A DNA stretch of 64,000 nt, from contig OY776510.1 of NCBI GenBank assembly GCA_963675665.1, positions 3,744,001 to 3,808,000 on the forward strand. The letters run 5' to 3'. This document shows, in pieces, positions 14,353 through 62,936 of this stretch. The translations under genes and the position numbers were made by a program. The notes beneath the pieces are model-generated. The model saw only the letters and a program-made list of their open reading frames with translations. It made no database searches and was not told the DNA's origin. Source of the stretch: Spirochaetia bacterium (GTDB taxonomy: Bacteria > Spirochaetota > Spirochaetia > UBA9216). Within the stretch, counting starts at the first letter, position 1; every line of letters begins with the position of its first letter.

Positions 14353-14424
14353 GCCAGAATAGCTCAGCGGTAGAGCAGCTCACTCGTAATGAGCAGGTCT
14401 GGGGTTCAATTCCCCATTCTGGCT
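14353..14424 (+). tRNA. tRNA-Thr(CGT)
   Basis: Cloverleaf: acceptor GCCAGAA/TTCTGGC, D arm GCTC/GAGC, anticodon arm GCTCA-CTCGTAA-TGAGC, T arm TGGGG-TTCAATT-CCCCA; CCA not encoded. Confidence 0.95.
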
Positions 14425-14907
14425 TTTTCCAAAGCCCGCCTTGTTATTGATAACCAAATTTTATTCTTTTTCGTAATGACGCAGGTAGAGCAATTTACAG
14501 CGGAGCCGGCACGGCGCAGATGGAAATTGCTCCGGGTTCCAATTCCCCATTCTGGCTTGATGGGCAGACGGTTTTTATATCCCTGGTTCGTGCTCACTCG
14601 TAATGACGCAGGTAGAGCAATTTACAGCGGAGCCGGCACGGCGCAGGTGGAAATTGCTCCGGGTTCCAATTCCCCATTCTGGCTTGATGGGCAGACGGTT
14701 TTTATATCCCTGGTTCGTGCTCACTCGTAATGACGCAGGTAGAGCAATTTACAGCGGAGCCGGCACGGCGCAGGTGGAAATTGCTCCGGGTTCCAATTCC
14801 CCATTCTGGCTTTTTCCAAAGCCCGCCTTGTTATTGATAACCAAATTTTATTCTTTCTCGTAATGACGCAGGTAGAGCAATTTGCAGCGGAGCCGGCACG
14901 GCGCAGA
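14425..14907 (+). repeat. Array of tRNA-Thr 3'-half-derived repeats carrying a hairpin insert
   Basis: Units at 14471-14557, 14592-14684, 14719-14811 and a partial unit at 14858-14907, separated by two linker types in the order A,B,B,A; 127-bp period across the B linkers. Confidence 0.9.
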
Positions 14908-15795
14908 TTATTGTCTCAAATCGGATACAAGATCCCCAAGCAGATCGGCTGTAACAGCCCCGTTTCTTACTGAATGGATTTTCCCGGTCAGGTTGATTAT
15001 GAATGTGGTCGGAACTGTTGAGATCCTGTAGGCTTCTGCAACTGTACCTGCTGAATCGAACAGAACGGGAAAATTCAGCCGGTTCTCCTCAAGATATCTC
15101 TTTATGTTTTCCGGATCAGATTCAGTTGAATACAAATTAACGGACAGAAAGACAACTTCCTCTTCATTGATCCCGGCAGCAAACTCAACAAGTTCAGGCA
15201 TTTCGGCACGGCAGGGAGGACACCAGCTTGCCCAGAAATTCAGCACTACTGTTTGCCCTCTGTAATTCGAAAGCCGGAAAATTTTTCCATTCTCATCTTG
15301 AAGGCTGAAATCAGGGGCTGCATCTCCTTCGACAACTGAGATTGGTGCATTCCAGGCCGTTTTTTTATTAATAAAAAACATGCCGCTCCCGAGCAAAATA
15401 AAAAGTACAGCAAAAACCGTAATATTCAAAACAAGGGCTTTCACGGCCTCTTTACGGCCTTTCTTTTGCCGTAAAAGGGCTGCCGAGGCATATACTGCAG
15501 CAACGCCTGAAGCCGCAAAAAGACCTGTCTTTCCGCCGGGCAGGTAAAGAATCGCGGCAGGATTGCTTAATACCGTTGAAAATTGAAATATAAGCGGAGA
15601 CAACTTCCATACTGCTATAACGATGAAAAATATATTAAACAGAATTTTATCGGCACGCCCGAGAAGTTCTTTCCTGTCTTTATACAGGAACCTGATAACA
15701 ATAGAATACATAACCAGGCAGAGAAAAAATACGATCACCCCTGCCGGGATATTAAGGGGACCTATTGAAATTGTCTGTCCGAGCGAATTTAACAT
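14908..15795 (-). CDS. Membrane-anchored TlpA-family thiol:disulfide reductase
   Basis: Four N-terminal TM helices; APDFSL and NFWASWCPPCRAEMP (CxxC) motifs. Confidence 0.85.
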   Translation of the reverse strand: MLNSLGQTISIGPLNIPAGVIVFFLCLVMYSIVIRFLYKDRKELLGRADKILFNIFFIVIAVWKLSPLIFQFSTVLSNPAAILYLPGGKTGLFAASGVAAVYASAALLRQKKGRKEAVKALVLNITVFAVLFILLGSGMFFINKKTAWNAPISVVEGDAAPDFSLQDENGKIFRLSNYRGQTVVLNFWASWCPPCRAEMPELVEFAAGINEEEVVFLSVNLYSTESDPENIKRYLEENRLNFPVLFDSAGTVAEAYRISTVPTTFIINLTGKIHSVRNGAVTADLLGDLVSDLRQ

Positions 15796-17903: not shown

Positions 17904-20717
17904 TTGAAGATTAAAAGTTTAATTTATTTGATAACAGGTATTTTTATATTTACCATACTCACCTCCTGCCCTTCTCCGCTTGAACCTGAAAAGCTTGCTT
18001 TGCTTAAGGATCTTGAAGCACCCAGGATTGTCATTACATCTCCGGCCGACTACAGCGAATACGCCACAGTTATCGAGCTTGAAGGCTATATTGAAGATAC
18101 ATCTCTTGCAAACCTGCCGGCCGACAGCGGGCTATCCGTTTCATACAGCATTCCCGGAACAAGCATCAACGGGACTGTTGATGTTAGTCTTCCCGACGGT
18201 TCTTTTTCGGGAATCATTAATGTGGCCGCGCTCAGCGGAGAAAAGGTGATTGAATTCAGCACTACTGATATAAACGGAAATTCAGCTTCTGCGTCTGTAA
18301 ATATTCTCAAACCTGAAGGTGGAGATATCTCCGGATTCACAGTCACGCCCGGCAACAGACAGGTAACAATATGCTGGGCCCCTGTTTCCGGCGCAGAGTC
18401 ATATTCGATATTTGAGTCGTCATACGGAGAGACTATAGAACCCGGAGAGATAACCGGAACAAGCTATACCTGGACCGGTCTTGAAAACGGCGAGATATAC
18501 AGCTTTCAGCTTACCGCGCACCTGCCCGTCGGAATCGGTGAAGATGCGTATTCCTCGACGGCTACAACAATGCCGCTTTCTCCCTTTAACCTCACTCCGG
18601 TGATAAAGAATACCGAACATAAAGCAATAACCATTGAATGGCCTGCTAATGATAATATCGACCGGTTCATCGTTGAACGCAGCGGCAGCCATCTCGGTCC
18701 ATGGGAAATAAAAAGGGTACTGACTCAAAATGTATTTACCGACGAAAAAGTTGAATACGATACTAACTACTATTACAGGATTACTCCTTCCGGCTTTACA
18801 GAGATAAACAGCCTCTGCGCCGGGAGCAGCCCCACCAGGTTCTCAGGTGACGATATCATCGCTACTTTGCCGTTGCCGGGCTCAATCACGCCCTTCTCGC
18901 TGCAAATCGATGATAACTATGCCTATATTGCAAACTTCAGAGACGGTTTAGCGATTGCTGATATATCGGACCCATACAATCCGATTATTGTTTCAAGTTA
19001 CGGCGTGGCTTCCACAGTGGAGATACGGGACATTTTCGTGAGAGACCGTATTGCATATCTTGCCGGTTATGACGACGGCCTTCTTCTTGTCGACATATCC
19101 GATATTGACAACCCCGTACTTCTATCCTCATGCAGCACACCCGGCAACGCGTTGGGAGTATATGTTTCCGGCGATTATGCGTATATAGCCGATGATTCTG
19201 AAAGAATATCTATCGTCGACATCTCAACCCCGGCTTCGGTAACAGACAGCTCATTGATATCCGGCTGCAGCACCGACGGGATTGCGGACAAAGTCCTTGT
19301 AAAGAACGGTTACGCCTATGTGGCTGCCGACGGGCTGGAGGTAATTGATGTATCCAATCCTCCGCTTGTAAATGATCTTTCAACAAAGGGAAGCTGGAGC
19401 AGCCTGGACGGAAAAATAAGCAAGGATATATACATCTCCGGTGAATATCTGTATATAGTGCTTCAACCCCCGCCTCCCGGCATTCCCCCGGGTCCGAGTT
19501 CCCTGCATATAATCGATATTTCAGTCCCTGCGAATGTAACGAACTCATCCGGTGTCGGCAGCTGTGAAATCTTAGGAAACGCGGAAGGCGTTACAGTATC
19601 CGGAAATCTCGCATACGTAGCATCATATGACGCCGATTTGCAGGTAATCGATGTATTTAATCCGGCAGCGCCGGTATTGGAAAGGACATACGCCACCTCC
19701 GGCGACCCGTTTGATGTAAAGGTTTCCGGTTATTACGCATATATCGCAGATCGCTACGGCAGCGGCCTCGTTGTATTGGATCTTGCAAAGCCCGGATCAC
19801 CTTCAATTGTTTCCGCTTCTGCGGACATGTACCGGACAAGCGATATAGAAATATTCGACGAATATGCCTATATTGCCGACGGCACTGACGGGTTAAAGAT
19901 TATGGATATATCCGAACCGGAAGAGATCTCACCGGCCTCCAATATTATTGAGTTTTCTCTCCCCGGCGAATGTCTTGAAATTAATATCCGCTATCCCTAT
20001 GCTTTTATAGCGGCACAGGGCTCAGGGCTTGTTGTCGTAAATATTGCTGATCCGCTTCATCCGTCCCTGCTTAGCAGCACTGAAACAACCCAGAATGCTA
20101 AGGATTTATATGTGCTGGGAAATTATGCATATGTTACGGACAGCGGATGCAGTCTTGAAATAATCGACATCACATTTCCGGAAACTCCTTCCATAGTTTC
20201 CACATGCGACACCGACGGGACTGTAAGCGGCATCACCGTATCCGGTGATTACGCATATATTTGCGCCGGAGGAAGCGGGCTTCAAATCATAGATATCTCC
20301 GATCCGCTCAGTCCGTATATTGCCGCATCCTGTACAAGCGCGGGAGGGGCGAGAAAAGCTGAAATCATCGGCAATTACGCCGTTGTCTCTTCAAATAGCG
20401 CAGGATTATATATTATTGATATTTCCGACCCGTCCGGAGTTACAAACACATCTATTGTAGCCAGCCATCCCGTAACAGGTCACGGATACAGCCTTGCAAT
20501 TGCCGGCGATTTTGTCTATGTCGGCGGAGACGAACGTTTCACGGTTGTGGATATAACCGACCCCGAATCTCCCTCAACCTTTTCCGGCTGCGCGCTGCCG
20601 ACACTCGGTATCGGCTACGGAATTGCCGTCGCAGACTCATACGCCTACATTGCAGACATTAATAGCGGACTTCAGATAATAAACCTCTTAGGAGGAATGA
20701 TAAAAAGTCCTCCATGA
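17904..20717 (+). CDS. Surface lipoprotein with Ig/Fn3 domains and LVIVD repeats (beta-propeller)
   Basis: TTG start; lipobox ILTSC; Fn3-like segments; many YAYIAD..GL.IIDISDP repeats. The last residues (GMIKSPP) come from the inserted element. Confidence 0.85.
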   Translation: MKIKSLIYLITGIFIFTILTSCPSPLEPEKLALLKDLEAPRIVITSPADYSEYATVIELEGYIEDTSLANLPADSGLSVSYSIPGTSINGTVDVSLPDGSFSGIINVAALSGEKVIEFSTTDINGNSASASVNILKPEGGDISGFTVTPGNRQVTICWAPVSGAESYSIFESSYGETIEPGEITGTSYTWTGLENGEIYSFQLTAHLPVGIGEDAYSSTATTMPLSPFNLTPVIKNTEHKAITIEWPANDNIDRFIVERSGSHLGPWEIKRVLTQNVFTDEKVEYDTNYYYRITPSGFTEINSLCAGSSPTRFSGDDIIATLPLPGSITPFSLQIDDNYAYIANFRDGLAIADISDPYNPIIVSSYGVASTVEIRDIFVRDRIAYLAGYDDGLLLVDISDIDNPVLLSSCSTPGNALGVYVSGDYAYIADDSERISIVDISTPASVTDSSLISGCSTDGIADKVLVKNGYAYVAADGLEVIDVSNPPLVNDLSTKGSWSSLDGKISKDIYISGEYLYIVLQPPPPGIPPGPSSLHIIDISVPANVTNSSGVGSCEILGNAEGVTVSGNLAYVASYDADLQVIDVFNPAAPVLERTYATSGDPFDVKVSGYYAYIADRYGSGLVVLDLAKPGSPSIVSASADMYRTSDIEIFDEYAYIADGTDGLKIMDISEPEEISPASNIIEFSLPGECLEINIRYPYAFIAAQGSGLVVVNIADPLHPSLLSSTETTQNAKDLYVLGNYAYVTDSGCSLEIIDITFPETPSIVSTCDTDGTVSGITVSGDYAYICAGGSGLQIIDISDPLSPYIAASCTSAGGARKAEIIGNYAVVSSNSAGLYIIDISDPSGVTNTSIVASHPVTGHGYSLAIAGDFVYVGGDERFTVVDITDPESPSTFSGCALPTLGIGYGIAVADSYAYIADINSGLQIINLLGGMIKSPP

Positions 20718-20802
20718 CTTTTTATCATTTTGAAGTTTACAAACTTTGTTTGAAAACTTCACTATTCATTACCTGCATCCATGCAGGAATTTCTTATAGG
20801 AG
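20695..20802 (+). mobile_element. 108-bp non-autonomous three-hairpin element sharing ends with the IS110
   Basis: First 15 nt are identical to the IS left end (GAATGATAAAAAGTC); ends in TTATAGGAG like the IS right end; flanked by TAGGAG. Hairpins at 20696-20729, 20731-20761 and 20772-20787. Confidence 0.75.
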
Positions 20803-20827
20803 GAATGATAAAAAGTCTTCATGAGCT

Positions 20828-20980
20828 GGTGAATTGATATACTGCCTTAACTTTAATTGAGGCAGTAAGGTTACTGTTCGACATTTTTACTGGTCCGCGA
20901 GACCGTTTAGGAGATTGAAGAGCCGTAACCGAAACATTCAATGGTCTGCGAGACCGGATAGGAGAATGGAACAATTCACC
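20828..20980 (+). ncRNA. Putative bridge RNA of IS110 copy 1
   Basis: Closing stem GGTGAATTG/CAATTCACC; 5' hairpin TACTGCCT..AGGCAGTA; two similar modules (GGTC-yGCGA-GACC..TAGGAG) whose flanks match the target and donor sequences. Confidence 0.75.
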
Positions 20981-21015
20981 GTATAGGCACTGCTTCAAAC
21001 TATTGGAGATAGAAC

Positions 21016-22128
21016 ATGAAGATGAGTATTGGCGTGGATCTTCACAAAACGCAGTTTACAGTATGCCTTTTAAGTGAAGACCGAAAAATTGATCAATTGG
21101 GAATGTATCCGACCAGCGGAAATGGTTATGGAGCATTTCTGAAAATGCTGGATGAATATTGTGAAGAGGAATATGAGTTGAGAGCAGCGGTGGAAACAAC
21201 CGGGAATGCCCGTTATTTCCGCAATAAACTGTTAAAGGCTGGAGTCGAAGTGGTTGTAGTGAATACTTTGAAATTCAAGGTAGTGAATGAATCTGTAAAA
21301 AAGACAGACAAACATGATGCACGCACCCTGGCGGAGTTTCTTGAGAAAGACATGCTGCCTGAATCGATATTATGTTCCCAAGAGAGTGAGGATATTCGAA
21401 GGGTGCTGAAATCCAGGTCGATACTGGTAAAATCTGTTGTGTCGTTAAAGAACCAGGTGCATGGCTTATTACTTGGTTATGGAATAGAGACCAAACGCGG
21501 ACAGCTGCAGAGTAAAAAAGAAAGGCAGCGAATCCTGAACGGTCTCGAGGACCACGACTTTTACGGAAGCGCTGCCAAAACGGTAATACCGTTACTGGAT
21601 ATGATAGATAATCAGGCATCGCAAGTCAAGCAGCTTGAAAAGGTTTTGGCTGAGCTTGTGGAGGACGATGAAGATGTTGAGCTTCTGCAGACAATACCAG
21701 GCGTGGGTCTAATAACAGCAGCAACAGTAAGAGCCTATACAGACGATATCGGCAGATATGATAGTGCGAAGAAATATGCAGCAAACGCCGGGCTTGTGCC
21801 ATGGGTGCAGAACTCAAATATGACAATACATCATGGACATATAACAAAGCGTGGGCCTGTAGAACTGAGGACAGCCTTCGTACAGATGGTGATGGGAATG
21901 GTTCGTATGCAAAAGAAGACCGGGACGTACCGAATAATGACGAAGTATGCAGCGATGAAGAAGCAGAAAGGCTCGGGTAAGAGTGTAATAGCTGCCGCCC
22001 GCAAGATGAGCACTTTGGTATATACAATTTTAAAAACCAGAGAGCCGTTTGATCCGATGAAAATGGCTTTTAGAAAAGAATACAGGGAAATGCAGGCAGC
22101 AGCATGGGAAGCTGTAATGGTCGGTTGA
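21016..22128 (+). CDS. IS110-family DEDD recombinase/transposase
   Basis: GVDLHK, VETTG and KTDKHDA (DEDD) motifs; LQTIPGVG and AGLVP..QNS in the C-terminal Transposase_20 region. Confidence 0.95.
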   Translation: MKMSIGVDLHKTQFTVCLLSEDRKIDQLGMYPTSGNGYGAFLKMLDEYCEEEYELRAAVETTGNARYFRNKLLKAGVEVVVVNTLKFKVVNESVKKTDKHDARTLAEFLEKDMLPESILCSQESEDIRRVLKSRSILVKSVVSLKNQVHGLLLGYGIETKRGQLQSKKERQRILNGLEDHDFYGSAAKTVIPLLDMIDNQASQVKQLEKVLAELVEDDEDVELLQTIPGVGLITAATVRAYTDDIGRYDSAKKYAANAGLVPWVQNSNMTIHHGHITKRGPVELRTAFVQMVMGMVRMQKKTGTYRIMTKYAAMKKQKGSGKSVIAAARKMSTLVYTILKTREPFDPMKMAFRKEYREMQAAAWEAVMVG

Positions 22129-22191
22129 TATCCGACTAGATCATAAGCTTATATTTTTAGCTTGTGGTTGACTTTTTATAGGAGAATAAAT

Positions 22192-24381
22192 ATGAAAAAA
22201 GGATTTCAAACAATAAAAACAATACTTTTTGCGGGACTCATCCTGCTACTGACTACCCTGCTTCCCCTCACTGCATTCTCCCAAAGCGGGGAAGTCGATT
22301 TAAACGAATATTACGCCTACCCGGTTTCCGCCGGGGCTTATTATCATCAGCTTTCGGGGCTGGGCAACAAAGCCCTTGCCGACTTCAGCATAAATGAGAT
22401 TTCCAGCGAAGCGCGCGTGCCGATTCCCGGTATTCCCGTACTGCAGCCGCTTGTCAGGGCCGGATACCTTAGCTACGGTTTTACCGGCAGCGTTGAAGAA
22501 CTGCACCAGGACTGGACACATTTTCATGTCTTCGGCGGGCCGGGCGTTGCCTACTGTTCCCGTATATCACGCGAATTCGAAATCGGCGCTGATCTTTTCG
22601 GGGCGCTGACACAGTCATATTTTACGGAACTGGTTTTCAACGGCGTCCAGGAAACACAGGGGCAATTGAATATACTGGCAGGACTGTCGGGGCGTCTTGC
22701 CTTGAATCCGTCCTATAATTTTTCCATATCGGTTAACCCGGCGCTGAATTACCTGTACGGGCTCGGCCCGCTGCATGATTACGACGGATTTACGTTCGGG
22801 GTCGGCTTTTCGGGTACATACCGCTTCGGACAGGACCCCGACGCGGCGCAGTCTTCAATAAAGGCGATACGTTTCGACGATGTTGATCTGCCTCCGCTGT
22901 TTGCCGCGATGCAGAGTTACTATGTAAAAAACCCGGCGGGAACGCTGACAATTTCCAACAAGGAAAAATACACGCTTGAAGGCGTCTCCCTGTCATTTAT
23001 GCAGCCGGGATTCATGGATTCGCCGAGCCCTATGGCGTCGGATATTGTTCTTGAGCCGGGCGAGAGTATAGAGGTCCCCATCACCCTGACTTTTAATAAC
23101 GAGGTTTTTTCAACCCAGGGGGTCACCCCGCTTACAGGCGAAATAATCGCAGGTTATACCGTACGCGGGCGCGAGGTTGAGCAGAGACAGTCGGTTACCT
23201 ACGATCTGCATGATCGCAACGCCCTTACGTGGGACGACGACCGGAAGGCCGCCGCATTTATTACAGCCCAGGACAGCGCCGTCCGCAACTATTCAAGCTA
23301 TATCCGCCAGATTCACCGCGACGCGGTCAGACCTTATATCAGCAGCAACCTTCAGTTTGCCATGCAGGTATTCAACGCCCTCGGCGAACTGGGCATTCTG
23401 TACCAGATTGATCCGACCGCTCCGTTTACCGAGGTCCAGGGCGACACCTTCGTCGTCGACTCAATCAGCCTGCCCCGCGAAACGCTAAAACGGCTGACCG
23501 GCGACTGCGACGATCTTACAGTACTTTTCTGCACAATGCTTGAATCAATCGGCATCGAATCCGCGCTGGTTACCGTTCCGGGACATATCTTCTGCGCTTT
23601 CAACACCGATGTTGAGTCTTCGGACTACATGATGATAAACCCCGACCGCAACCAGATAATCGAAGTTGACGGCAACATCTGGATACCGGTTGAAATTACA
23701 ATGATAGGAAAACACAGCTTTACGGAAGCCTGGAACAAGGGATACTCGGAATTCGCGGAATGGGACGCCGAACCCGACCGCAGGGGTTTTTATAAAACCG
23801 GCGATGCACAGGGCATATTCCGGCCTGTAGTCCTGCGCGAAACCGATCTTGGGCTTCAGTACGGAGACGATGAGGCGGTTGTTTCGGCATTTGAAAAGGA
23901 CCTTGATTCCCTGTCGCAGTCAATCTTAAAACCTGCCAAAGCCGACGCTGAGGCAAAAGGCACCCCGAAAGCCTGGAATTCCTACGGGGTAGCCGCGGCA
24001 AAACTCGGCGCGTACGGCACTGCGGAAACCGCCTTTGACAAGGCCGTAAAATCAAAACCCGATTACACAAGCGCCAAGCTGAACCTCGGCTCACTGTATT
24101 ACATAATGGAAAAATATTCAGATGCGTTTAAAGTTTACCAGAATATCGAACAGAATGCCGCAAACCTGAATATTTCCGACCGTACCATGTTCAATCTTTA
24201 CCTTAACATGAGCAAAACAAGCTATGCTCTTGAGAAAAATGACGAGGCTGATTCCTATTTCCGCAAAGCCACTCAGCTTGACGCTGATAAAGCCGCCGAT
24301 TTCGCCTACCTCGGCACAGGCGGTACAGGTGTCGCAAGAGCTGCCGAGGCTGCTGACAGTAAGATATCGTTTTTTGAATAG
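22192..24381 (+). CDS. Exported protein with beta-rich N-terminus, Ig-like region, transglutaminase-like domain and TPRs
   Basis: Signal peptide from MKKGFQ (ATG 22192, after the IS-supplied SD); GDCDD...VPGHIF Cys/His motif; C-terminal TPR helices. Confidence 0.75.
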   Translation: MKKGFQTIKTILFAGLILLLTTLLPLTAFSQSGEVDLNEYYAYPVSAGAYYHQLSGLGNKALADFSINEISSEARVPIPGIPVLQPLVRAGYLSYGFTGSVEELHQDWTHFHVFGGPGVAYCSRISREFEIGADLFGALTQSYFTELVFNGVQETQGQLNILAGLSGRLALNPSYNFSISVNPALNYLYGLGPLHDYDGFTFGVGFSGTYRFGQDPDAAQSSIKAIRFDDVDLPPLFAAMQSYYVKNPAGTLTISNKEKYTLEGVSLSFMQPGFMDSPSPMASDIVLEPGESIEVPITLTFNNEVFSTQGVTPLTGEIIAGYTVRGREVEQRQSVTYDLHDRNALTWDDDRKAAAFITAQDSAVRNYSSYIRQIHRDAVRPYISSNLQFAMQVFNALGELGILYQIDPTAPFTEVQGDTFVVDSISLPRETLKRLTGDCDDLTVLFCTMLESIGIESALVTVPGHIFCAFNTDVESSDYMMINPDRNQIIEVDGNIWIPVEITMIGKHSFTEAWNKGYSEFAEWDAEPDRRGFYKTGDAQGIFRPVVLRETDLGLQYGDDEAVVSAFEKDLDSLSQSILKPAKADAEAKGTPKAWNSYGVAAAKLGAYGTAETAFDKAVKSKPDYTSAKLNLGSLYYIMEKYSDAFKVYQNIEQNAANLNISDRTMFNLYLNMSKTSYALEKNDEADSYFRKATQLDADKAADFAYLGTGGTGVARAAEAADSKISFFE

Positions 24382-29852: not shown

Positions 29853-29914
29853 CTTAATCTCCTATAAAAAGTCAACCACAAGCTAAAAATATAAGCTTAT
29901 GATCTGGTCGGATA

Positions 29915-31027
29915 TCAACCGACCATTACAGCTTCCCATGCTGCTGCCTGCATTTCCCTGTATTCTTTTCTAAAAGCCATTTTCATCGGATCAAACGGCT
30001 CTCTGGTTTTTAAAATTGTATATACCAAAGTGCTCATCTTGCGGGCGGCAGCTATTACACTCTTACCCGAGCCTTTCTGCTTCTTCATCGCTGCATACTT
30101 CGTCATTATTCGGTACGTCCCGGTCTTCTTTTGCATACGAACCATTCCCATCACCATCTGTACGAAGGCTGTCCTCAGTTCTACAGGCCCACGCTTTGTT
30201 ATATGTCCATGATGTATTGTCATATTTGAGTTCTGCACCCATGGCACAAGCCCGGCGTTTGCTGCATATTTCTTCGCACTATCATATCTGCCGATATCGT
30301 CTGTATAGGCTCTTACTGTTGCTGCTGTTATTAGACCCACGCCTGGTATTGTCTGCAGAAGCTCAACATCTTCATCGTCCTCCACAAGCTCAGCCAAAAC
30401 CTTTTCAAGCTGCTTGACTTGCGATGCCTGATTATCTATCATATCCAGTAACGGTATTACCGTTTTGGCAGCGCTTCCGTAAAAGTCGTGGTCCTCGAGA
30501 CCGTTCAGGATTCGCTGCCTTTCTTTTTTACTCTGCAGCTGTCCGCGTTTGGTCTCTATTCCATAACCAAGTAATAAGCCATGCACCTGGTTCTTTAACG
30601 ACACAACAGATTTTACCAGTATCGACCTGGATTTCAGCACCCTTCGAATATCCTCACTCTCTTGGGAACATAATATCGATTCAGGCAGCATGTCTTTCTC
30701 AAGAAACTCCGCCAGGGTGCGTGCATCATGTTTGTCTGTCTTTTTTACAGATTCATTCACTACCTTGAATTTCAAAGTATTCACTACAACCACTTCGACT
30801 CCAGCCTTTAACAGTTTATTGCGGAAATAACGGGCATTCCCGGTTGTTTCCACCGCTGCTCTCAACTCATATTCCTCTTCACAATATTCATCCAGCATTT
30901 TCAGAAATGCTCCATAACCATTTCCGCTGGTCGGATACATTCCCAATTGATCAATTTTTCGGTCTTCACTTAAAAGGCATACTGTAAACTGCGTTTTGTG
31001 AAGATCCACGCCAATACTCATCTTCAT
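29915..31027 (-). CDS. IS110-family DEDD recombinase/transposase
   Basis: Translation identical to 21016-22128. Confidence 0.95.
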   Translation of the reverse strand: MKMSIGVDLHKTQFTVCLLSEDRKIDQLGMYPTSGNGYGAFLKMLDEYCEEEYELRAAVETTGNARYFRNKLLKAGVEVVVVNTLKFKVVNESVKKTDKHDARTLAEFLEKDMLPESILCSQESEDIRRVLKSRSILVKSVVSLKNQVHGLLLGYGIETKRGQLQSKKERQRILNGLEDHDFYGSAAKTVIPLLDMIDNQASQVKQLEKVLAELVEDDEDVELLQTIPGVGLITAATVRAYTDDIGRYDSAKKYAANAGLVPWVQNSNMTIHHGHITKRGPVELRTAFVQMVMGMVRMQKKTGTYRIMTKYAAMKKQKGSGKSVIAAARKMSTLVYTILKTREPFDPMKMAFRKEYREMQAAAWEAVMVG

Positions 31028-31062
31028 GTTCTATCTCCAATAGTTTGAAGCAGTGCCTATAC

Positions 31063-31215
31063 GGTGAATTGTTCCATTCTCCTATCCGGTCTCGCAGACC
31101 ATTGAATGTTTCGGTTACGGCTCTTCAATCTCCTAAACGGTCTCGCGGACCAGTAAAAATGTCGAACAGTAACCTTACTGCCTCAATTAAAGTTAAGGCA
31201 GTATATCAATTCACC
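31063..31215 (-). ncRNA. Putative bridge RNA of IS110 copy 2
   Basis: Reverse complement of 20828-20980. Confidence 0.75.
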
Positions 31216-33584
31216 AGCTCATGAAGACTTTTTATCATTCCTCCTATAAAATACAGGCGCGAACCGAAGTCTCCTACAAGCCTCGTTTTTTCGGTGTAGC
31301 CCGTTCCGGTGAATTGATGGTAAGGTCTTATTCCAGCGAACATCAGTTCGTCGCCGAAAGCTTCAAATTCCTCTACCTCGTTTTCCAACATATAGTTATT
31401 GCTGATAACAGTGTGAAGAATACCGTCGGCCTTCAGCTTTATCGGGCTGATATGATTTACCAGATTACCGAATGCACGGATATTCACATACTGTCTTCTT
31501 GTTATAACTTTATACATCATATCCGGTTCAAGGCCAACAGTTTTAAGCTGCTCAAAACCTCCGTTTGGTTTCTGCAGAATCTGGTAATAACCGAGAACGG
31601 CATTTTTTTTATCTTTGCTTACAGTAATCCATAACGGCTGGTTATCTGAAAACGGAGATTTTAACCGGTAAAAATCTCCGTACTGAAAGAGGCTGCGCCG
31701 GCTTTTATAGTCGGTTATCTGCTGTTTTATTGTTTTCTTTTCAAAATTGGAAAGTTTCGTCAGATCCAGTTCATAGCCCAGAAGACCGAAAGCTGCAACA
31801 TTGAATCTTGTCTCAAGAGGCGTATTACGCAGTACCTGATGCGAAGGCGCGGCGCTTACGTGCGCCCCCATTACCGACGGCGGGTATACCATTGAAGTAC
31901 CGTACTGAATACTGATTCTTTCAACCGCGTCGGTATTGTCGCTTGTCCAGGTCTGGGGCATATAGTACAGCATTCCGAGATCAAAGCGGTTTCCGCCGCT
32001 CGCGCATGATTCAAAAAGGATATCGGGAAACTCATTTTTAAGCTTGTCCAGAAGCCGGTAGAGCCCAAGAACATACCTGTGCGCCTGCTCTTTCTGACGT
32101 TCCGCCGGCAGGATGTTTGAATAGAGGTCCGAAAGGTTCCGGTTGCAGTCCCATTTCACATACTGCAGACCTGCCCTCCTGAAAAGATTTGACAGAACTT
32201 CATACATATAATCAATTACATCCGGGTTTGCGTAATCAAGCATCAGCTGGAAACGCCCTTCCGAAGCGGGTCGTTCCGGTGTTTTTATAGCCCAGTCGGG
32301 ATGCGCCCGGTACAGTTCGCTGTCGGCATTGACCATCTCTGGTTCAACCCAGAGGCCGAATTTCAAACCTTTAGCATGAAGTTTTCTGCCAAGTCTTTCC
32401 AGACCACCTGGAAGCTTCTTCCTGTTTTCATACCAGTCGCCGAGGCTTGAATGATCATCATCACGCTTTCCGAACCAGCCGTCATCAAGAACAAACAGCT
32501 CGATACCGAGTTTTACTGCTTCATCGGCAAGCTTGAGCAGTTTACTTTCGTTAAAATCGAAATATGTCGCTTCCCAGTTATTTATAAGGACAGGCCTGTC
32601 CTTATACTGCCAGGCCGGGTTTACAATATTATTATTAATCAGCTCGTGAAAATTCCTGCTCATCCCGTTTAATCCTGAATCTGAATAAGTCAGAATCGCT
32701 TCGGGTGTTTGAAATGATTCACCGGGGACGAGTTGCCAGCTGAAATCGAAAGGATTAATCCCCATCTGGATCCTTGTAAACGAATGAGGATTTACTTCAG
32801 CAAGACCGATATGATTACCTGAATAAACAAGCGAAAAACCGTAGCATTCACCTGCATTCTCGGTGGTATCGGCTCTCTTTAAACAAAAAAACGGGTTATG
32901 ATTAGCGCTGCTCACGCCTTTTTTTGAATCTATATAGAAAATACCCTCTGAAAGTTTCCGGGTATTTATATGGCGTTCGCTTATCCATTTCCCGTCAAGG
33001 GTAAGCAGCTCAAAACCGGATTCACTGAAATCAAGATTAAAACTCATCAGCTTCTCTATGGACACCGGGAGATTCCCGCTGTTTACAAGCTTCGAACTTC
33101 GTGTAATAACATTACGCTCATAATACACGGTATAGCTGAGCACCAGAATCAGGTTGGCGTATGTGTCTTCAAGAGTTATTTCCAGCGTCTCAACATTATC
33201 GTTGTTTCTGAACGCATGCGGCATATCCTGAAGCTTGTTTTCGCCTTCATAGATTCTGTGGCTTTTATAAATGAAATCACAAACCCTGGTTCCGTTGCTG
33301 AAATTGATTTCCGTAAACGGTTCGCGGTAATCACCCTTGCCGTACGCCGGGGCTTCCAGGCAGGCGGCATCAAGACTGAAGTGTCCTGTTTCCGTACTGT
33401 AGCATGTTGAACTGCCCGTCCACAGGCTGAACGACTGGTGCATATTATTGTATGAACTTTTTTCCCGTATTCTTTTTCCGAAATACAGATTAACAGGATG
33501 GCCCGAGTCAAGGATTCTTATGATATAACTTGTATTCTCTGTAGAAAGATGGAAATCTGATTTGTTATTCCTGATTTTTATCAT
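31206..33584 (-). CDS. Alpha-galactosidase (GH36)
   Basis: INNWEATYFDF, LFVLDDGWFG, FGLWVEPEM, YVKWDCN, ESCASGG and WTSDNTD motifs. The last residues (GMIKSLHELVN) come from the IS left end. Confidence 0.93.
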   Translation of the reverse strand: MIKIRNNKSDFHLSTENTSYIIRILDSGHPVNLYFGKRIREKSSYNNMHQSFSLWTGSSTCYSTETGHFSLDAACLEAPAYGKGDYREPFTEINFSNGTRVCDFIYKSHRIYEGENKLQDMPHAFRNNDNVETLEITLEDTYANLILVLSYTVYYERNVITRSSKLVNSGNLPVSIEKLMSFNLDFSESGFELLTLDGKWISERHINTRKLSEGIFYIDSKKGVSSANHNPFFCLKRADTTENAGECYGFSLVYSGNHIGLAEVNPHSFTRIQMGINPFDFSWQLVPGESFQTPEAILTYSDSGLNGMSRNFHELINNNIVNPAWQYKDRPVLINNWEATYFDFNESKLLKLADEAVKLGIELFVLDDGWFGKRDDDHSSLGDWYENRKKLPGGLERLGRKLHAKGLKFGLWVEPEMVNADSELYRAHPDWAIKTPERPASEGRFQLMLDYANPDVIDYMYEVLSNLFRRAGLQYVKWDCNRNLSDLYSNILPAERQKEQAHRYVLGLYRLLDKLKNEFPDILFESCASGGNRFDLGMLYYMPQTWTSDNTDAVERISIQYGTSMVYPPSVMGAHVSAAPSHQVLRNTPLETRFNVAAFGLLGYELDLTKLSNFEKKTIKQQITDYKSRRSLFQYGDFYRLKSPFSDNQPLWITVSKDKKNAVLGYYQILQKPNGGFEQLKTVGLEPDMMYKVITRRQYVNIRAFGNLVNHISPIKLKADGILHTVISNNYMLENEVEEFEAFGDELMFAGIRPYHQFTGTGYTEKTRLVGDFGSRLYFIGGMIKSLHELVN

Positions 33585-59155: not shown

Positions 59156-59647
59156 ATGAACAACGCCGAGATGGTTACTGAAAAAGAACTGATAACCAAA
59201 TTCAGGGCTGCAATTAAAGACAGAGCTACATGGTTTGCACTGCTCTATCGGGAGTTTCTGTCCGAACTTCCTGCGGCGACAGTCGAAAAGGCAAGCCGGA
59301 ACGCTATATATGCATACGGAAAGCTGAAAGCCTCACGGGATACAGCGGATTTTTCAGCAGGGGAGCTTCTTGACAATTTCGTAGAAACGGGGGGCGCAAA
59401 AATCTTCGATGCAAAAATTGAGAATACAGCTGAAGGAGTACTTAATAAAGTTCACAACTGCGCGCTTGTCGATGCATGGAAAGAAATGAACTGTTCACAG
59501 GAAGAAGTTGAACTATTCTGTGATATTGCGATGGACGGCGATCGGGGTCGCGCTGAAGGCCACGGTTTAACCCTCAAACTCAGGGAAACTCTGGCCAAAA
59601 ATGATGATTATTGCTGGATTTGCCTGTCTGATCCTGATAATAAATAA
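59156..59647 (+). CDS. L-2-amino-thiazoline-4-carboxylate hydrolase-like protein, paralog 1
   Basis: AIKDRATW, CALVDAW, LFCDIAMDGDRG and C-terminal Cys motifs; family assigned from recall. Confidence 0.7.
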   Translation: MNNAEMVTEKELITKFRAAIKDRATWFALLYREFLSELPAATVEKASRNAIYAYGKLKASRDTADFSAGELLDNFVETGGAKIFDAKIENTAEGVLNKVHNCALVDAWKEMNCSQEEVELFCDIAMDGDRGRAEGHGLTLKLRETLAKNDDYCWICLSDPDNK

Positions 59648-59671
59648 AACACACAAATTATGGAGACAAAT

Positions 59672-60160
59672 ATGAGCGAAAACAAGGAAATGGTTACCAA
59701 GGAAGAGATGATTACAAAAATCAGAGCAGCAATTAAGGACAGAGCTACATGGTTTGCCCTCCTTTATGAAGAATTCTGCAAAGAACTTCCTGAAGAAAAG
59801 GTTATTGAACTCAGCCGAAAAGCAATAACCAGGTACGGTTATATGAAAGCGGCAAAAGATCCTGAACCCTTCAAAGCAAAAGACTGGGTAATAAGACATA
59901 AGGATAAAGGATCTGCCGATGTCTTTGATTCGGATATTGAATACAATGATACTGAAGCAACGCAAAGAATGAAAAATTGTGCCCTTGTAGATGCCTGGAA
60001 AGAGATGAATTACAGTCCGGAAAAAATTGATCTTTTCTGCGATATTGCAATGGACGGTGACCGGGGCCGGGCTCAGGGTCACGACAATATTATAATGGAG
60101 TTACATGAGACCATTGGCAAGGGGTGTGATTTCTGCAGACTGGTTATAAAAGAAAAATAG
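59672..60160 (+). CDS. L-2-amino-thiazoline-4-carboxylate hydrolase-like protein, paralog 2
   Basis: Same motifs as paralog 1; GGAG SD before ATG 59672. Confidence 0.7.
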   Translation: MSENKEMVTKEEMITKIRAAIKDRATWFALLYEEFCKELPEEKVIELSRKAITRYGYMKAAKDPEPFKAKDWVIRHKDKGSADVFDSDIEYNDTEATQRMKNCALVDAWKEMNYSPEKIDLFCDIAMDGDRGRAQGHDNIIMELHETIGKGCDFCRLVIKEK

Positions 60161-60175
60161 TCGGAGGATGGATAG

Positions 60176-60724
60176 TTGAACATTTATTTCTGCGGAATGA
60201 TTGGCACCGGCAAAACTACCATCGGGCTGAAACTTTCTGAAGAGCTTGGGCTTGATTTCTATGATCTTGATCGTGTTATGGACAACAGACTCGGTTATTC
60301 ATTTCACAAACTGGTAGCAGAAAAAGGCTGGCTGGCATTCAGGGAACTTGAATATTCAATCTGCCGCGATTTTTCAAAAAAGAAAAACTCAATAATATGC
60401 CTCGGCGGCGGTACGGTTCGATACGACTGGAACGTCGATATTCTGAAACCAACAGGAAAATTGATTCTTTTCGAAGCATCAATTGCAGTACTGGTTAACC
60501 GTGTATCGAAGGCGGACAGGCCCCGGGTCAATGAAGGTGTAAGCCTTGAAGAGGACCTTCGAATTATGTATGAACAATCGCATGACAAGTATCTTGCCGC
60601 CGCAGATATTATTTATCGGACAGACAAAAAATCTGAAGATGAAGAAGTTCAGGACATCAAAGATATGATTTTTACAGATCCGGATCTGTCTGAAATTAAA
60701 TTACATTGCAAATCATCAGCATAA
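60176..60724 (+). CDS. Shikimate kinase-like P-loop kinase
   Basis: TTG start after GGAGG; GMIGTGKTT, DLD, FRELE, LGGG and RP motifs. Confidence 0.8.
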   Translation: MNIYFCGMIGTGKTTIGLKLSEELGLDFYDLDRVMDNRLGYSFHKLVAEKGWLAFRELEYSICRDFSKKKNSIICLGGGTVRYDWNVDILKPTGKLILFEASIAVLVNRVSKADRPRVNEGVSLEEDLRIMYEQSHDKYLAAADIIYRTDKKSEDEEVQDIKDMIFTDPDLSEIKLHCKSSA

Positions 60725-60735
60725 AGGAGAATTAT

Positions 60736-61116
60736 ATGAAAGAAATAATTAATACTGAAAAGGCCCCGTCCGCTATCGGGCCATATTCACAGGCCGTTAA
60801 AATAAACGGCTTTGTATATACTTCCGGACAGCTCGGTATTAACCCGGCAACAGGAGAACTTCCGGAAGGAGTTGAAGCCCAAACTGAAGCTTCCATTAAA
60901 AACGCCGAAGCGATTCTGAATGCCGAAGGATTAACGCTTTCCGATGTCTTTAAAACTCTGGTGTTTATTAAAGACATGAATGATTTCGGAAAGGTCAATA
61001 ATGTATACAGCAGATTTTTCACCGAAAATTTCCCTGCGCGAAGCTGTGTTGAAGTTGCCAGACTTCCAAAGGATGCGCTTGTTGAAATTGAATTCATTGC
61101 CGGCTGTCAGGAATAA
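60736..61116 (+). CDS. ridA: RidA-family enamine/imine deaminase
   Basis: APSAIGPYSQA, SGQL and FPARSCVEVARLPKDALVEIE motifs. Confidence 0.9.
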   Translation: MKEIINTEKAPSAIGPYSQAVKINGFVYTSGQLGINPATGELPEGVEAQTEASIKNAEAILNAEGLTLSDVFKTLVFIKDMNDFGKVNNVYSRFFTENFPARSCVEVARLPKDALVEIEFIAGCQE

Positions 61117-61119
61117 TAA

Positions 61120-62445
61120 ATGAAAAATGAACTATGGAATGATTTTATTATTCTAATCAAACAGGAAGTTGTGCCGGCCCTGGGCTGCACGGAACCAATT
61201 GCCGTAGCTCTTGCTGCAGCCAAAGCTGCGGAAGTTCTCGGAAAAGAACCTGAGGCTATTGATGTATATCTCAGCCAGAATGTACTTAAAAACGGCATGA
61301 GCGTCGGAATTCCGGGAACCGGGCTTTACGGCCTTGAGATAGCAACCGCCGTAGGAGCATTGGGCGGGAATTCCACTTACGGACTTGAAGTACTTAAAAA
61401 CCTTACTCCTGAAAATCTTGAAAAAGGCAAAGCTATGCTTAAAGCCGGAAAAGTAAAGGTTAACCTTAAAGAAGTTCCGGATGTACTTTATATTGAAGTT
61501 ACAGTAAGAACATCCGATGAAAACGCAAAGGTTATCATCAAAAAACGCCACGACAATATCTGTTATATTGAGCAAAACGGTAAAATCATTCTTGATTCCG
61601 ATATGGATAAAGCATCAGCAGATTCGGCATCAGATAATCCTTCCGCCAAATTACTTGAAGAACTCAGTGAAAAGGATATCTGGGATTTTGCAACAAATGT
61701 ACCGCTTGAAAAAATTGAATTTATAATGGAAGCCGTAGAATTAAACAAAAAGATATCAGAAGAAGGATTAAGGGGTGATTACGGCCTTAAGGTAGGAAAA
61801 TCTATTGATGAAAATATCATCAAGGGATTTCTTCAGTCCGACCTGAGCAATGATGCCGTAAAAAGAACAGCAAGCGGCGCCGATGCCCGAATGGCCGGTT
61901 CGGACCTGCCGGTTATGAGTAATTCAGGAAGCGGAAACCAGGGAATAACTGCGACAATGCCTGTAGTGGCCGTAGCGGAAAAAATCGGCTCAGGCCGTGA
62001 ACAGCTTATACGCGCGCTGATTTTAAGCCACCTTACTTCCATTCACATGAAATCCAAAATGGACAGGCTGTCCGCCCTTTGCGGAGCGTCTGTTGCAGCT
62101 ACCGGCGCCAGCTGCGGAGTTGTGTACCTTCTCGGCGGTGTTTATGAACATGTAGAGTATGCAATTAAAAATATGGTTGGAAACATTGCCGGAATGGTAT
62201 GCGACGGAGCCAAAACAAGCTGCGCGCTTAAAGTAGCTTCATCAGTAAGCGCCGGGGTTCAGGGAGCATTACTGGCCATAAACAGCATAGGCGTTACGGA
62301 AATAGAAGGTATTGTTGAAGAAGATATCGAAAGAACAATAAACAATCTCGGAAAACTCGGTTCAAGCGGCATGGCTGAAACCGATAAGGTTATTCTTTCA
62401 ATAATGACATCGAAAGTTAAAGCATATAAAGACAAGGCGGTTTAG
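61120..62445 (+). CDS. L-cysteine desulfidase family (CyuA/YhaM-like)
   Basis: PALGCTEP, KNGMSVGIPGT, DARMAG..PVMSNSGSGNQG, LSALCG and GMVCDGAKTSCALK motifs. Confidence 0.88.
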   Translation: MKNELWNDFIILIKQEVVPALGCTEPIAVALAAAKAAEVLGKEPEAIDVYLSQNVLKNGMSVGIPGTGLYGLEIATAVGALGGNSTYGLEVLKNLTPENLEKGKAMLKAGKVKVNLKEVPDVLYIEVTVRTSDENAKVIIKKRHDNICYIEQNGKIILDSDMDKASADSASDNPSAKLLEELSEKDIWDFATNVPLEKIEFIMEAVELNKKISEEGLRGDYGLKVGKSIDENIIKGFLQSDLSNDAVKRTASGADARMAGSDLPVMSNSGSGNQGITATMPVVAVAEKIGSGREQLIRALILSHLTSIHMKSKMDRLSALCGASVAATGASCGVVYLLGGVYEHVEYAIKNMVGNIAGMVCDGAKTSCALKVASSVSAGVQGALLAINSIGVTEIEGIVEEDIERTINNLGKLGSSGMAETDKVILSIMTSKVKAYKDKAV

Positions 62446-62447
62446 AA

Positions 62448-62936
62448 ATGAAAATTAAGAATAATCCTGTACAGCATGATTCACATATAGATTCAATCAG
62501 AAACGCAATCGAGCACAGGGCCACCTGGATGTATCTGCTTATGGATGAAGCAAGAAAGCGGGGTCTTGAATGGGAAGACTTCGGCAGGGATGCAATTCTT
62601 CGCTGCGGGCATTTCCACGGTCAGACAAAATTTCCTGAAACTGAAAACCTGAAAACTTTCGGTGAAAGTTTTGCTACTGAAGACCTGAAAAAAGTCTTTG
62701 ACATGAATGTTGTTCAGTGCGACGAAGATGCTTTTATTGTCGAATTCAATTACTGCCCGCTCCTCTCCGCCTGGATTAAACAGACGGATAATGAGAAAGA
62801 TATTGAGCTTCTTTGTGATATCGCCATGGACGGCGATCGCGGAATTATTGAAGAATACCCGAAATTCAATTTTGATCTCCAAAGTACTCTCGCCTGCGGC
62901 GACAAGGTCTGCCGGCTGGTGATTTCAAAGAAATAG
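62448..62936 (+). CDS. L-2-amino-thiazoline-4-carboxylate hydrolase-like protein, paralog 3
   Basis: AIEHRATW, CPLLSAW, LLCDIAMDGDRG and TLACGDKVC motifs. Confidence 0.72.
   Translation: MKIKNNPVQHDSHIDSIRNAIEHRATWMYLLMDEARKRGLEWEDFGRDAILRCGHFHGQTKFPETENLKTFGESFATEDLKKVFDMNVVQCDEDAFIVEFNYCPLLSAWIKQTDNEKDIELLCDIAMDGDRGIIEEYPKFNFDLQSTLACGDKVCRLVISKK

Follow-up and report, generated by a model that had tools for sequence, protein, structure and literature searches.

Positions 20828-20980 (+ strand) of the 64,000-nucleotide stretch of Spirochaetia bacterium contig OY776510.1 analysed here (the window, whose positions serve as coordinates throughout) encode, in our reading, the bridge RNA (seekRNA) of a 1,382-bp insertion sequence (IS) of the IS110 family, an RNA that would steer insertion of the element between the Shine-Dalgarno sequence (SD) and the ATG of a host gene. 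We assign this reading a probability of roughly 85%. Programmable recombinases of a new class are built on bridge and seek RNAs, whose natural variants reveal which of their rules are fixed. A first-pass annotation, made from the sequence alone, had proposed two guide-bearing modules in this region, the first a target loop and the second a donor loop, and had named guide covariation among homologous elements as a check. In about 100 related insertions three of the four guide segments covary with the element's flanks and termini and the fourth is invariant, which bears out both assignments. The strings and coordinates quoted there (a 9-bp stem, both modules, and the GAATG and ATAGGAG ends) also proved correct base for base in the window.

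The IS and its parts are located as follows.

20803..22184, + strand: complete IS110-family element, copy 1, with unrelated flanks outside
20803..20807, + strand: left terminus GAATG, which forms the right half of the donor (circle-junction) site and covaries with the donor-loop 5' guide
20808..20817, + strand: left subterminal inverted repeat ATAAAAAGTC, reverse complement of 22170-22179
21016..22128, + strand: transposase/recombinase gene, 370 aa, with the Pfam domains DEDD_Tnp_IS110 (9.3e-18) and Transposase_20 (1.4e-17)
22168..22184, + strand: right end TTGACTTTTTATAGGAG, comprising a -35-like TTGACT, the right repeat and the terminus ATAGGAG
22170..22179, + strand: right subterminal repeat GACTTTTTAT, forming a 10-bp pair with ATAAAAAGTC
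22178..22184, + strand: right terminus ATAGGAG, as read in the sequence
29859..31240, - strand: second copy in the window, reported as an inverted repeat of 1,396 nt with 100% complementarity

A search of the genome (5.15 Mb, one contig) found 15 copies of the element, all at 100% identity. Since the flanks of these copies diverge exactly outside GAATG...ATAGGAG, the element must span 20803-22184. In the second copy of the window the bridge-RNA region lies at about 31063-31215 (- strand), and the flanks are ATAGGAG directly before the element and ATTAAGATG directly after it. Five bases lie outside the 10-bp repeats on the left (GAATG) and five on the right (AGGAG). The non-coding left end measures 213 bp, and only 56 bp follow the stop codon of the transposase gene, whose open reading frame (ORF) begins 35 nt 3' of the RNA structure. 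Compared with PDB entries, the transposase gave weak matches to the IS621 and ISCro4 recombinases over residues 202-348 only (E about 1e-15), the match to IS621 being confined to the C-terminal domain (E 5.6e-15). Translation by eye shows the stretch GLVPWVQNS, which fits the GL-P----S of the IS1111 motif with N instead of the next G. A tblastn search of plasmids returned only generic "IS110 family transposase" names, the best match being a Thiospirochaeta perfilievii plasmid (76.6%). At E <= 1e-30 the transposase was found in none of ten other genomes of the same taxonomic family, and no empty site was recovered from five genomes of the genus, in one of which the right flank matched over only 77 nt at 73% identity.

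The site occupied by copy 1 consists of two halves.

20796..20802, + strand: left target half ATAGGAG, which is the last 7 nt of an adjoining mini-element
22185..22194, + strand: right target half, AATAAAT followed by the ATG (22192-22194) of a TPR-repeat gene 3' of the element

All 15 copies have a left flank ending in AGGAG (ATAGGAG in nine, TTAGGAG in four, TAAGGAG and AAAGGAG in one each). Every right flank contains an ATG oriented like the transposase gene, at a distance of 5 nt in two copies, 6 nt in 12 and 7 nt in one. As background, an ATG at +4 to +8 accompanies 132 of the 545 WTAGGAG sites of this genome (24%), a count that includes the 15 right junctions. In related elements an ATG lies 3-9 nt past GGAG at 91 of 96 sites, the spacing being 5 nt at 15 sites, 6 nt at 51, 7 nt at 13 and 8 nt at 8, with a mode of 6. 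Real targets had been said to match the SD half of the target loop at 7/7 and 6/7 positions, and this holds: TTAGGAG (20688-20694) flanks the mini-element, and ATAGGAG flanks both IS copies.

Within the left end the proposed RNA comprises the following parts.

20828..20836, + strand: 5' strand of the P1 closing stem, GGTGAATTG, pairing with 20972-20980
20840..20867, + strand: 5' stem-loop of 11 bp, seen in the minimum-free-energy fold
20869..20930, + strand: module 1, the target-binding loop, with basal stems GGUUAC/GUAACC and GUUC/GAGC, an internal loop and a top hairpin at 20891-20905
20882..20888, + strand: target 5' guide CAUUUUU, complementary to NNNN-ATG on the top strand at the target gene
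20907..20913, + strand: target 3' guide UUAGGAG, which has the top-strand sequence of the left target half and could thus pair with the bottom strand
20935..20939, + strand: donor 5' guide CAUUC, the complement of GAATG at the left terminus
20942..20956, + strand: top hairpin of module 2 (helix 8), fully paired in relatives
20958..20964, + strand: donor 3' guide AUAGGAG, identical to the right terminus
20972..20980, + strand: 3' strand of the P1 closing stem, CAATTCACC, pairing with 20828-20836

The closing stem of 9 bp, or 10 bp counting a flanking U-G pair, encloses the whole RNA. Module 1, closed by GGTTAC (20869-20874) and GTAACC (20925-20930), reads CATTTTT (20882-20888), act, GGTCCGCGAGACC (20892-20904), gt and TTAGGAG (20907-20913); module 2 (20935-20964) reads CATTC (20935-20939), aat, GGTCTGCGAGACC (20943-20955), gg and ATAGGAG (20958-20964). 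The hairpin motif GGTCYGCGAGACC has six matches at no more than one mismatch in the window, against 0.02 expected; four are exact and lie in the two IS copies, and two with one mismatch lie within transposase genes. Folded as a 157-nt + strand sequence, the region reached -56 kcal/mol (z = -6.2, none of 200 shuffles as good). The - strand also folds well (-45.3 kcal/mol, z = -5.6), and therefore folding alone cannot give the strand.

Relatives were collected by a scan of species genomes, which gave 80 loci with 33-79% protein identity in Spirochaetota, Desulfobacterota-type metagenome-assembled genomes (MAGs), Lentisphaeria and others, and by a scan of metagenomes, which gave 80 further loci. 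The structure was tested on an alignment of 27 distinct RNAs (A2), which was used instead of a MAFFT alignment of the whole left end (A1) in which the closing stem was mis-registered and missed by RNAalifold. In A2, 86.1% of 1,255 cells are paired in the proposed structure, compared with 29-42% when the partners are slid by 1-3 columns, and changes on both sides occur at 22 of 47 pairs. The closing stem (helix 1) is paired in 85.7% of cells with five of eight pairs changed on both sides, and some relatives have rebuilt it with unrelated sequences such as CGGATAATAGC/GCTATTATCCG and TGGTGGGTAGT/ACTACCCACCG. The 5' stem-loop (helix 3) shows such changes at 8 of 11 pairs; it is the least well aligned part, with only 65% of its cells paired. 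Helices 4 and 6 of module 1 are 95.9% and 100% paired, both with compensatory changes, and the top hairpins of both modules are 100% paired, three of the five pairs of helix 8 in module 2 having changed on both sides. Outside the RNA the left-end motif G....GATAAA hardly varies; the left end G...GATAAAAAG and the right end TTGACTTTTTATAGGAG are almost invariant across relatives, and TTTTTATAGGAG occurs at 107 of 110 right ends from several phyla.

Several relatives depart from this plan. In five of them (L058, L065, L081, L086 and L090) the left end has lost its 5' part, target loop included, or has other sequence in its place, and the donor loop and transposase remain; these may be decayed or recombined copies. 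At L059 the right end is present in tandem 3' of the transposase (positions 2298-2380 of that locus), with two copies of GACTTTTTATAGGAG 29 nt apart. In a distant group from Lentisphaeria, Victivallales and Clostridia MAGs (L091-L109, 33-35% identity) the left end is shaped differently and still contains ...AAAGGAGATTAG... and ...GTATAGGAGGATGG..., so that this group may also possess an AGGAG-reading bridge RNA.

For the analysis of the guides, 118 of 175 loci could be parsed by patterns, corresponding to 114 unique insertions. The donor 5' guide changes together with the left terminus. Seven distinct left-end pentamers (GAATG, GCACG, GAACG, GTATG, GCATG, GAGTG and GTACG) are each accompanied by a guide that is their perfect complement, together accounting for 103 of 112 parsed sites. 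The remaining eight combinations (nine sites) carry 1-4 mismatches; at least three of them are parsing errors and were left in. Over the 15 distinct combinations the mean match is 3.87 of 5, compared with 3.0 after permutation, and none of 10000 permutations reached as high a value. The target 3' guide follows the left flank in the same manner: identity is 0.73 against 0.34 permuted at position -7 and 0.88 against 0.55 at position -6 (0 of 3000 permutations as high in either case), and no signal was seen at -8, which sets the length of this guide at 7 nt. Rare variants of AGGAG occur jointly in guide and flank, as GGGAG in one relative (L189) and as GAGAG/TAGAG in another (L085).

These joint changes bear on the view that the region merely controls transposase expression, either as a structured mRNA leader or through DNA sites that bind protein, and that the protein itself picks the site. 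Before 2024 the non-coding ends of IS110 elements were indeed believed to regulate expression (PMC11208160), and here the RNA is predicted from DNA and the region drew no Rfam match: Rfam 15, which may lack a bridge-RNA model, gave no family over 20828-20980 at E up to 10, with chance-level rows at the 5' edge of the RNA only (snoR15, E 5.5; NRON, E 1.3). A leader, however, has no reason to hold segments that change in step with the host flank and with the first five bases of the element, and RNA guidance of this recombinase family has been demonstrated in experiments (PMC11208160; PMC11187229). Hence we regard a leader or protein-binding site as very improbable.

The target 5' guide required a different anchor. 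CAT is present in 112 of 114 relatives, and when the four bases after it are compared with the four bases before the target ATG, they match at 0.469 compared with 0.328 permuted (0 of 3000 as high). Nine shifted registers gave no comparable excess (p from 0.017 to 0.97), which argues against a simple effect of base composition. In a fixed register the signal is weaker, the best offset giving 0.371 against 0.303 (p = 0.002). The weaker fixed-register result suits another account, in which the RNA guides through the SD half only, the ATG and its A-rich flank reflect the natural context of SD and ATG together with selection, and CAU is a purely structural segment paired with AUG. The CAU/AUG mini-helices are indeed conserved (90% paired), and the spacing from GGAG to ATG varies (3-9 nt) with roughly the natural distribution at the WTAGGAG-ATG sites of this genome. 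Guidance by the SD half alone nevertheless leaves unexplained why the four variable guide bases match the pre-ATG bases far above permutation in the ATG-anchored register and not in shifted ones. Moreover, the homologous CAU position of the donor loop does covary with DNA, CGUGC occurring with GCACG and CGUUC with GAACG, and an ATG follows only 24% of WTAGGAG sites in the genome compared with 15 of 15 insertions. We therefore consider this account unlikely, though clearly less so than the leader, and retain a bridge RNA that reads both halves of the target.

The fourth guide is constant. The donor 3' guide reads ATAGGAG in 114 of 114 parsed RNAs, and the same seven bases terminate 109 of 110 right ends. 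Pairing is compatible with this invariance, which gives covariation nothing to test. A search of A2 by eye for handshake guides, covering the opening bases of the right flank and of the element's left end, revealed no consistent partner for the variable base after AGGAG-A in either loop.

In the mechanism that we propose, the 5' strand of module 1 (CAU plus four bases) would pair with the top strand at the target ATG and the four bases before it, and AUAGGAG and CAUUC of module 2 would together read the abutted ends ATAGGAG-GAATG. The DEDD recombinase would then exchange strands within the AGGAG common to target and donor. The last two bases of this shared AGGAG are the reverse complement of CT, both 3' guides cover them, and the crossover probably falls there, at the final AG, where the opposite strand reads CT as in IS621. 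The gap between the target halves would be looped out. The element would come to lie immediately behind the host SD, co-oriented with the host gene, and its right end would supply a fresh ATAGGAG to the host ATG 3' of it. With the host SD remaining before the left end and the ATAGGAG of the element before the host ATG, the host gene should keep a ribosome-binding site; the element would be cheap to its host because the SD is restored. The sense orientation should also allow host transcription to run through the element.

The first-pass annotation had read the target loop as an ideal ribosome-binding site plus start codon. The loop does spell both halves, SD and ATG, but not as one contiguous string: read contiguously it gives GGAG-AAAA-ATG with a 4-nt spacing, compared with 5-8 nt at real sites. 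As the real sites are 1-4 bases longer than this contiguous reading, one half must be read across a gap, which suggests that the distance from the crossover at which one target half is read may vary. A fuller version of our reading, which we put forward tentatively and at slightly below even odds, would combine these features as follows. The target would be bipartite, with a 7-nt SD half at the crossover and a 7-nt half of "four bases + ATG" at a flexible distance (1-4 unpaired bases). The RNA would be a left-end RNA with a guide order so far described only for right-end IS1111 seekRNAs. The element would be specialised for sense entry into translation-initiation regions, borrowing the host promoter, returning the SD and mobilising TD-1/TD-2 mini-elements in trans.

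Several points weigh against the assignment of a bridge RNA with these guides. We infer the existence of the RNA, as well as its start and end, from DNA sequence alone. The donor 3' guide and the right end are invariant, and so is CAU with respect to ATG. The CAU of each loop could instead pair with a conserved AUG of the 3' strand within the RNA; these mini-helices show no compensatory change and speak neither for nor against such pairing. The gap between SD and ATG varies by 1-4 nt beyond the contiguous reading, which the overlapping-guide mechanism of IS621 does not predict. The 5' guides do not clearly cover the core dinucleotide, the aAT, aCT and variants found there not being conserved as CU. 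Selection against insertions within genes could explain part of the 15/15 bias towards sites between SD and ATG. The related sequences are not independent, so that the permutation figures overstate significance, and 57 of the 175 loci were unparsed and uncounted, namely truncated copies, contig ends and the distant group with 33-35% identity. Finally, the -10-like hexamer TAAAAA that would be used at the circle junction lacks the usual final T.

The source of the RNA can be considered in the light of this junction. Joined ends would read TTGACT, 17 nt and TG-a-TAAAAA, which is promoter-like, the left repeat ATAAAAAGTC itself containing the -10-like TAAAAA with TG ahead. A promoter rebuilt at the circle junction would thus be a possible source of the RNA, which would be transcribed and then bound by the recombinase. 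In the integrated copy a consensus scan, which is blind to the circle junction, gave no + strand promoter-like site 5' of the RNA and no + strand terminator-like site inside the element, so that host read-through could also transcribe the RNA. No RNA data set was listed as containing this stretch. In the four runs that do contain it, which are contigs from one study, the IS occurs at about 14-fold the depth of its flanks and the circle junction was not seen; neither outcome says anything on expression. Contigs of three of the runs (X1-X3) contained a joint of left-end base 20835 to right-end base 22165 with six other letters between; it corresponds to an internal-deletion derivative of about 59 bp consisting of the ends only, and is weakly supported with a short side of 20 nt.

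How does this RNA compare with known systems? In the IS621 bridge RNA there are two loops, and each of them carries two guides (Durrant et al., 2024; Hiraizumi et al., 2024; PMC11208160; PMC11208158). As in IS621, the RNA studied here is encoded in the left non-coding end, 5' of the DEDD/IS110 recombinase, and has the order 5' stem-loop, target-binding loop, donor-binding loop. Each loop is likewise a hairpin-capped internal loop whose two guides read opposite strands of the two site halves, the bottom strand for the left half and the top strand for the right, and a -35 in the right end and a -10 in the left end would form a promoter at the circle junction. Unlike in IS621, the two guides are swapped along the RNA, the top-strand complement being 5' here, which amounts to turning the DNA round with respect to the cargo. 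Furthermore, the target halves have a variable gap, whereas those of IS621 overlap a CT core that all four guides cover; the donor 5' guide has a length of only 5 nt, and the 5' guides cover no visible core; and the subterminal inverted repeats measure 10 bp as opposed to 2-3 bp.

The first-pass annotation was right that the complementary guide lies 5' of the identical guide, the reverse of the IS621 order, and went too far in calling this a distinct architecture. According to the account of Siddiquee et al. (2024; PMC11187229), the IS1111-type seekRNAs of ISEc11, ISKpn4 and ISPa11 have the top-strand complement 5' of the bottom-strand complement, and the IS110-type element ISEc21 has the IS621 order. 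The same source states that IS1111 types have their non-coding region downstream and IS110 types have theirs upstream, ISMtsp17 being among the rare exceptions, and subterminal inverted repeats of about 7-17 bp are given for IS1111 elements in PMC11208160. The element of the window agrees with IS1111 types in guide order, with CAUUUUU (5') complementary to the top strand and UUAGGAG (3') identical to it, in having 10-bp subterminal inverted repeats with few bases outside, and in ends that abut in the circle with no target duplication beyond shared bases. Unlike in IS1111 types, its RNA lies upstream of the transposase, not downstream. This suggests that the guides can be swapped within a loop even when the RNA is encoded upstream. 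A preprint (10.64898/2026.10.21.760802) describes 86 bridge-RNA covariance models, many deviating from the IS621 shape, and its models could already include the RNA family of this element.

A similar target logic is found in IS900, a Mycobacterium element of the IS110 group, for which the target motif CATGNNNNNNTCTCCTT (CATGN6TCTCCTT) has been given (PMC8141618). The reverse complement of this motif, AAGGAGA-N6-CATG, follows the same order of SD, spacer and start codon as the sites described here. The two systems differ in that the transposase of IS900 and its relatives is of another subgroup and size, and IS900 takes the opposite orientation relative to its target gene. An SD- and ATG-reading RNA offers an RNA-based explanation of why some IS110-family elements, namely IS900 and its relatives, enter the interval from the ribosome-binding site to the start codon. 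A literature search joining IS900, SD and bridge RNA or seekRNA returned no paper that treats IS900 with a bridge RNA, and this search is our sole basis for taking an SD/ATG-reading bridge RNA as not in print. RNA-guided IS110/IS1111 transposition is already established and the system is not of a new kind; what is new is the bipartite target of SD and start codon with a variable gap, the combination of guide order and RNA position, and the associated mini-elements.

The mini-element next to copy 1 has this location.

20695..20802, + strand: 108-bp mini-element with ends GAATGATAAAAAGTC ... TTCTTATAGGAG, inserted after TTAGGAG (20688-20694) and adjoining the left side of copy 1

It belongs to a family of about 110-130 bp with the IS termini GAATGATAAAA ... 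TTTTTATAGGAG, represented by this copy and by eight further loci of the same genome (L191-L198). When the mini-element and its four preceding bases (20691-20802, 112 nt) served as BLAST query against the genome, 41 rows came back, many of them full or partial diverged copies between GGAG and ATG, some in tandem. On the opposite strand of the 20695-20802 copy Rfam reports TD-2 (RF03162) at 44.7 bits. In other copies four TD-2 matches reach 50.1-56.5 bits, where the gathering score is 48.7, and two more lie at 43.7-45; in four of the eight mini-element loci tested TD-2 had no match at E <= 0.01. TD-1 and TD-2 were introduced as orphan motifs of Treponema denticola, and TD-1 was described as overlapping TD-2 in reverse complement and as lying mostly in 5' regulatory positions (Weinberg et al., 2007; PMC1950547). 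Unlike the possible structured RNAs proposed at that time, the copies found here carry IS termini and sit between SD and ATG, which fits non-autonomous mobile elements and suggests that the orphan TD-1/TD-2 motifs of spirochaetes may be non-autonomous relatives of this IS family.

An ORF with LVIVD repeats (17904-20717) lies 5' of the mini-element and reads through the SD into it (20688-20717). Without the two insertions this ORF would end at a TAA situated between the SD and the ATG of the following gene, and the insertions have therefore changed its last residues. Elsewhere in the window, a tandem array at 14398-14908 has a period of about 127 nt and four units that are 61-99% alike, and diverged direct repeats of 49-81 nt at 59168-62842 (80-82% identity, 519 and 2,776 nt apart) resemble paralogous coding segments.

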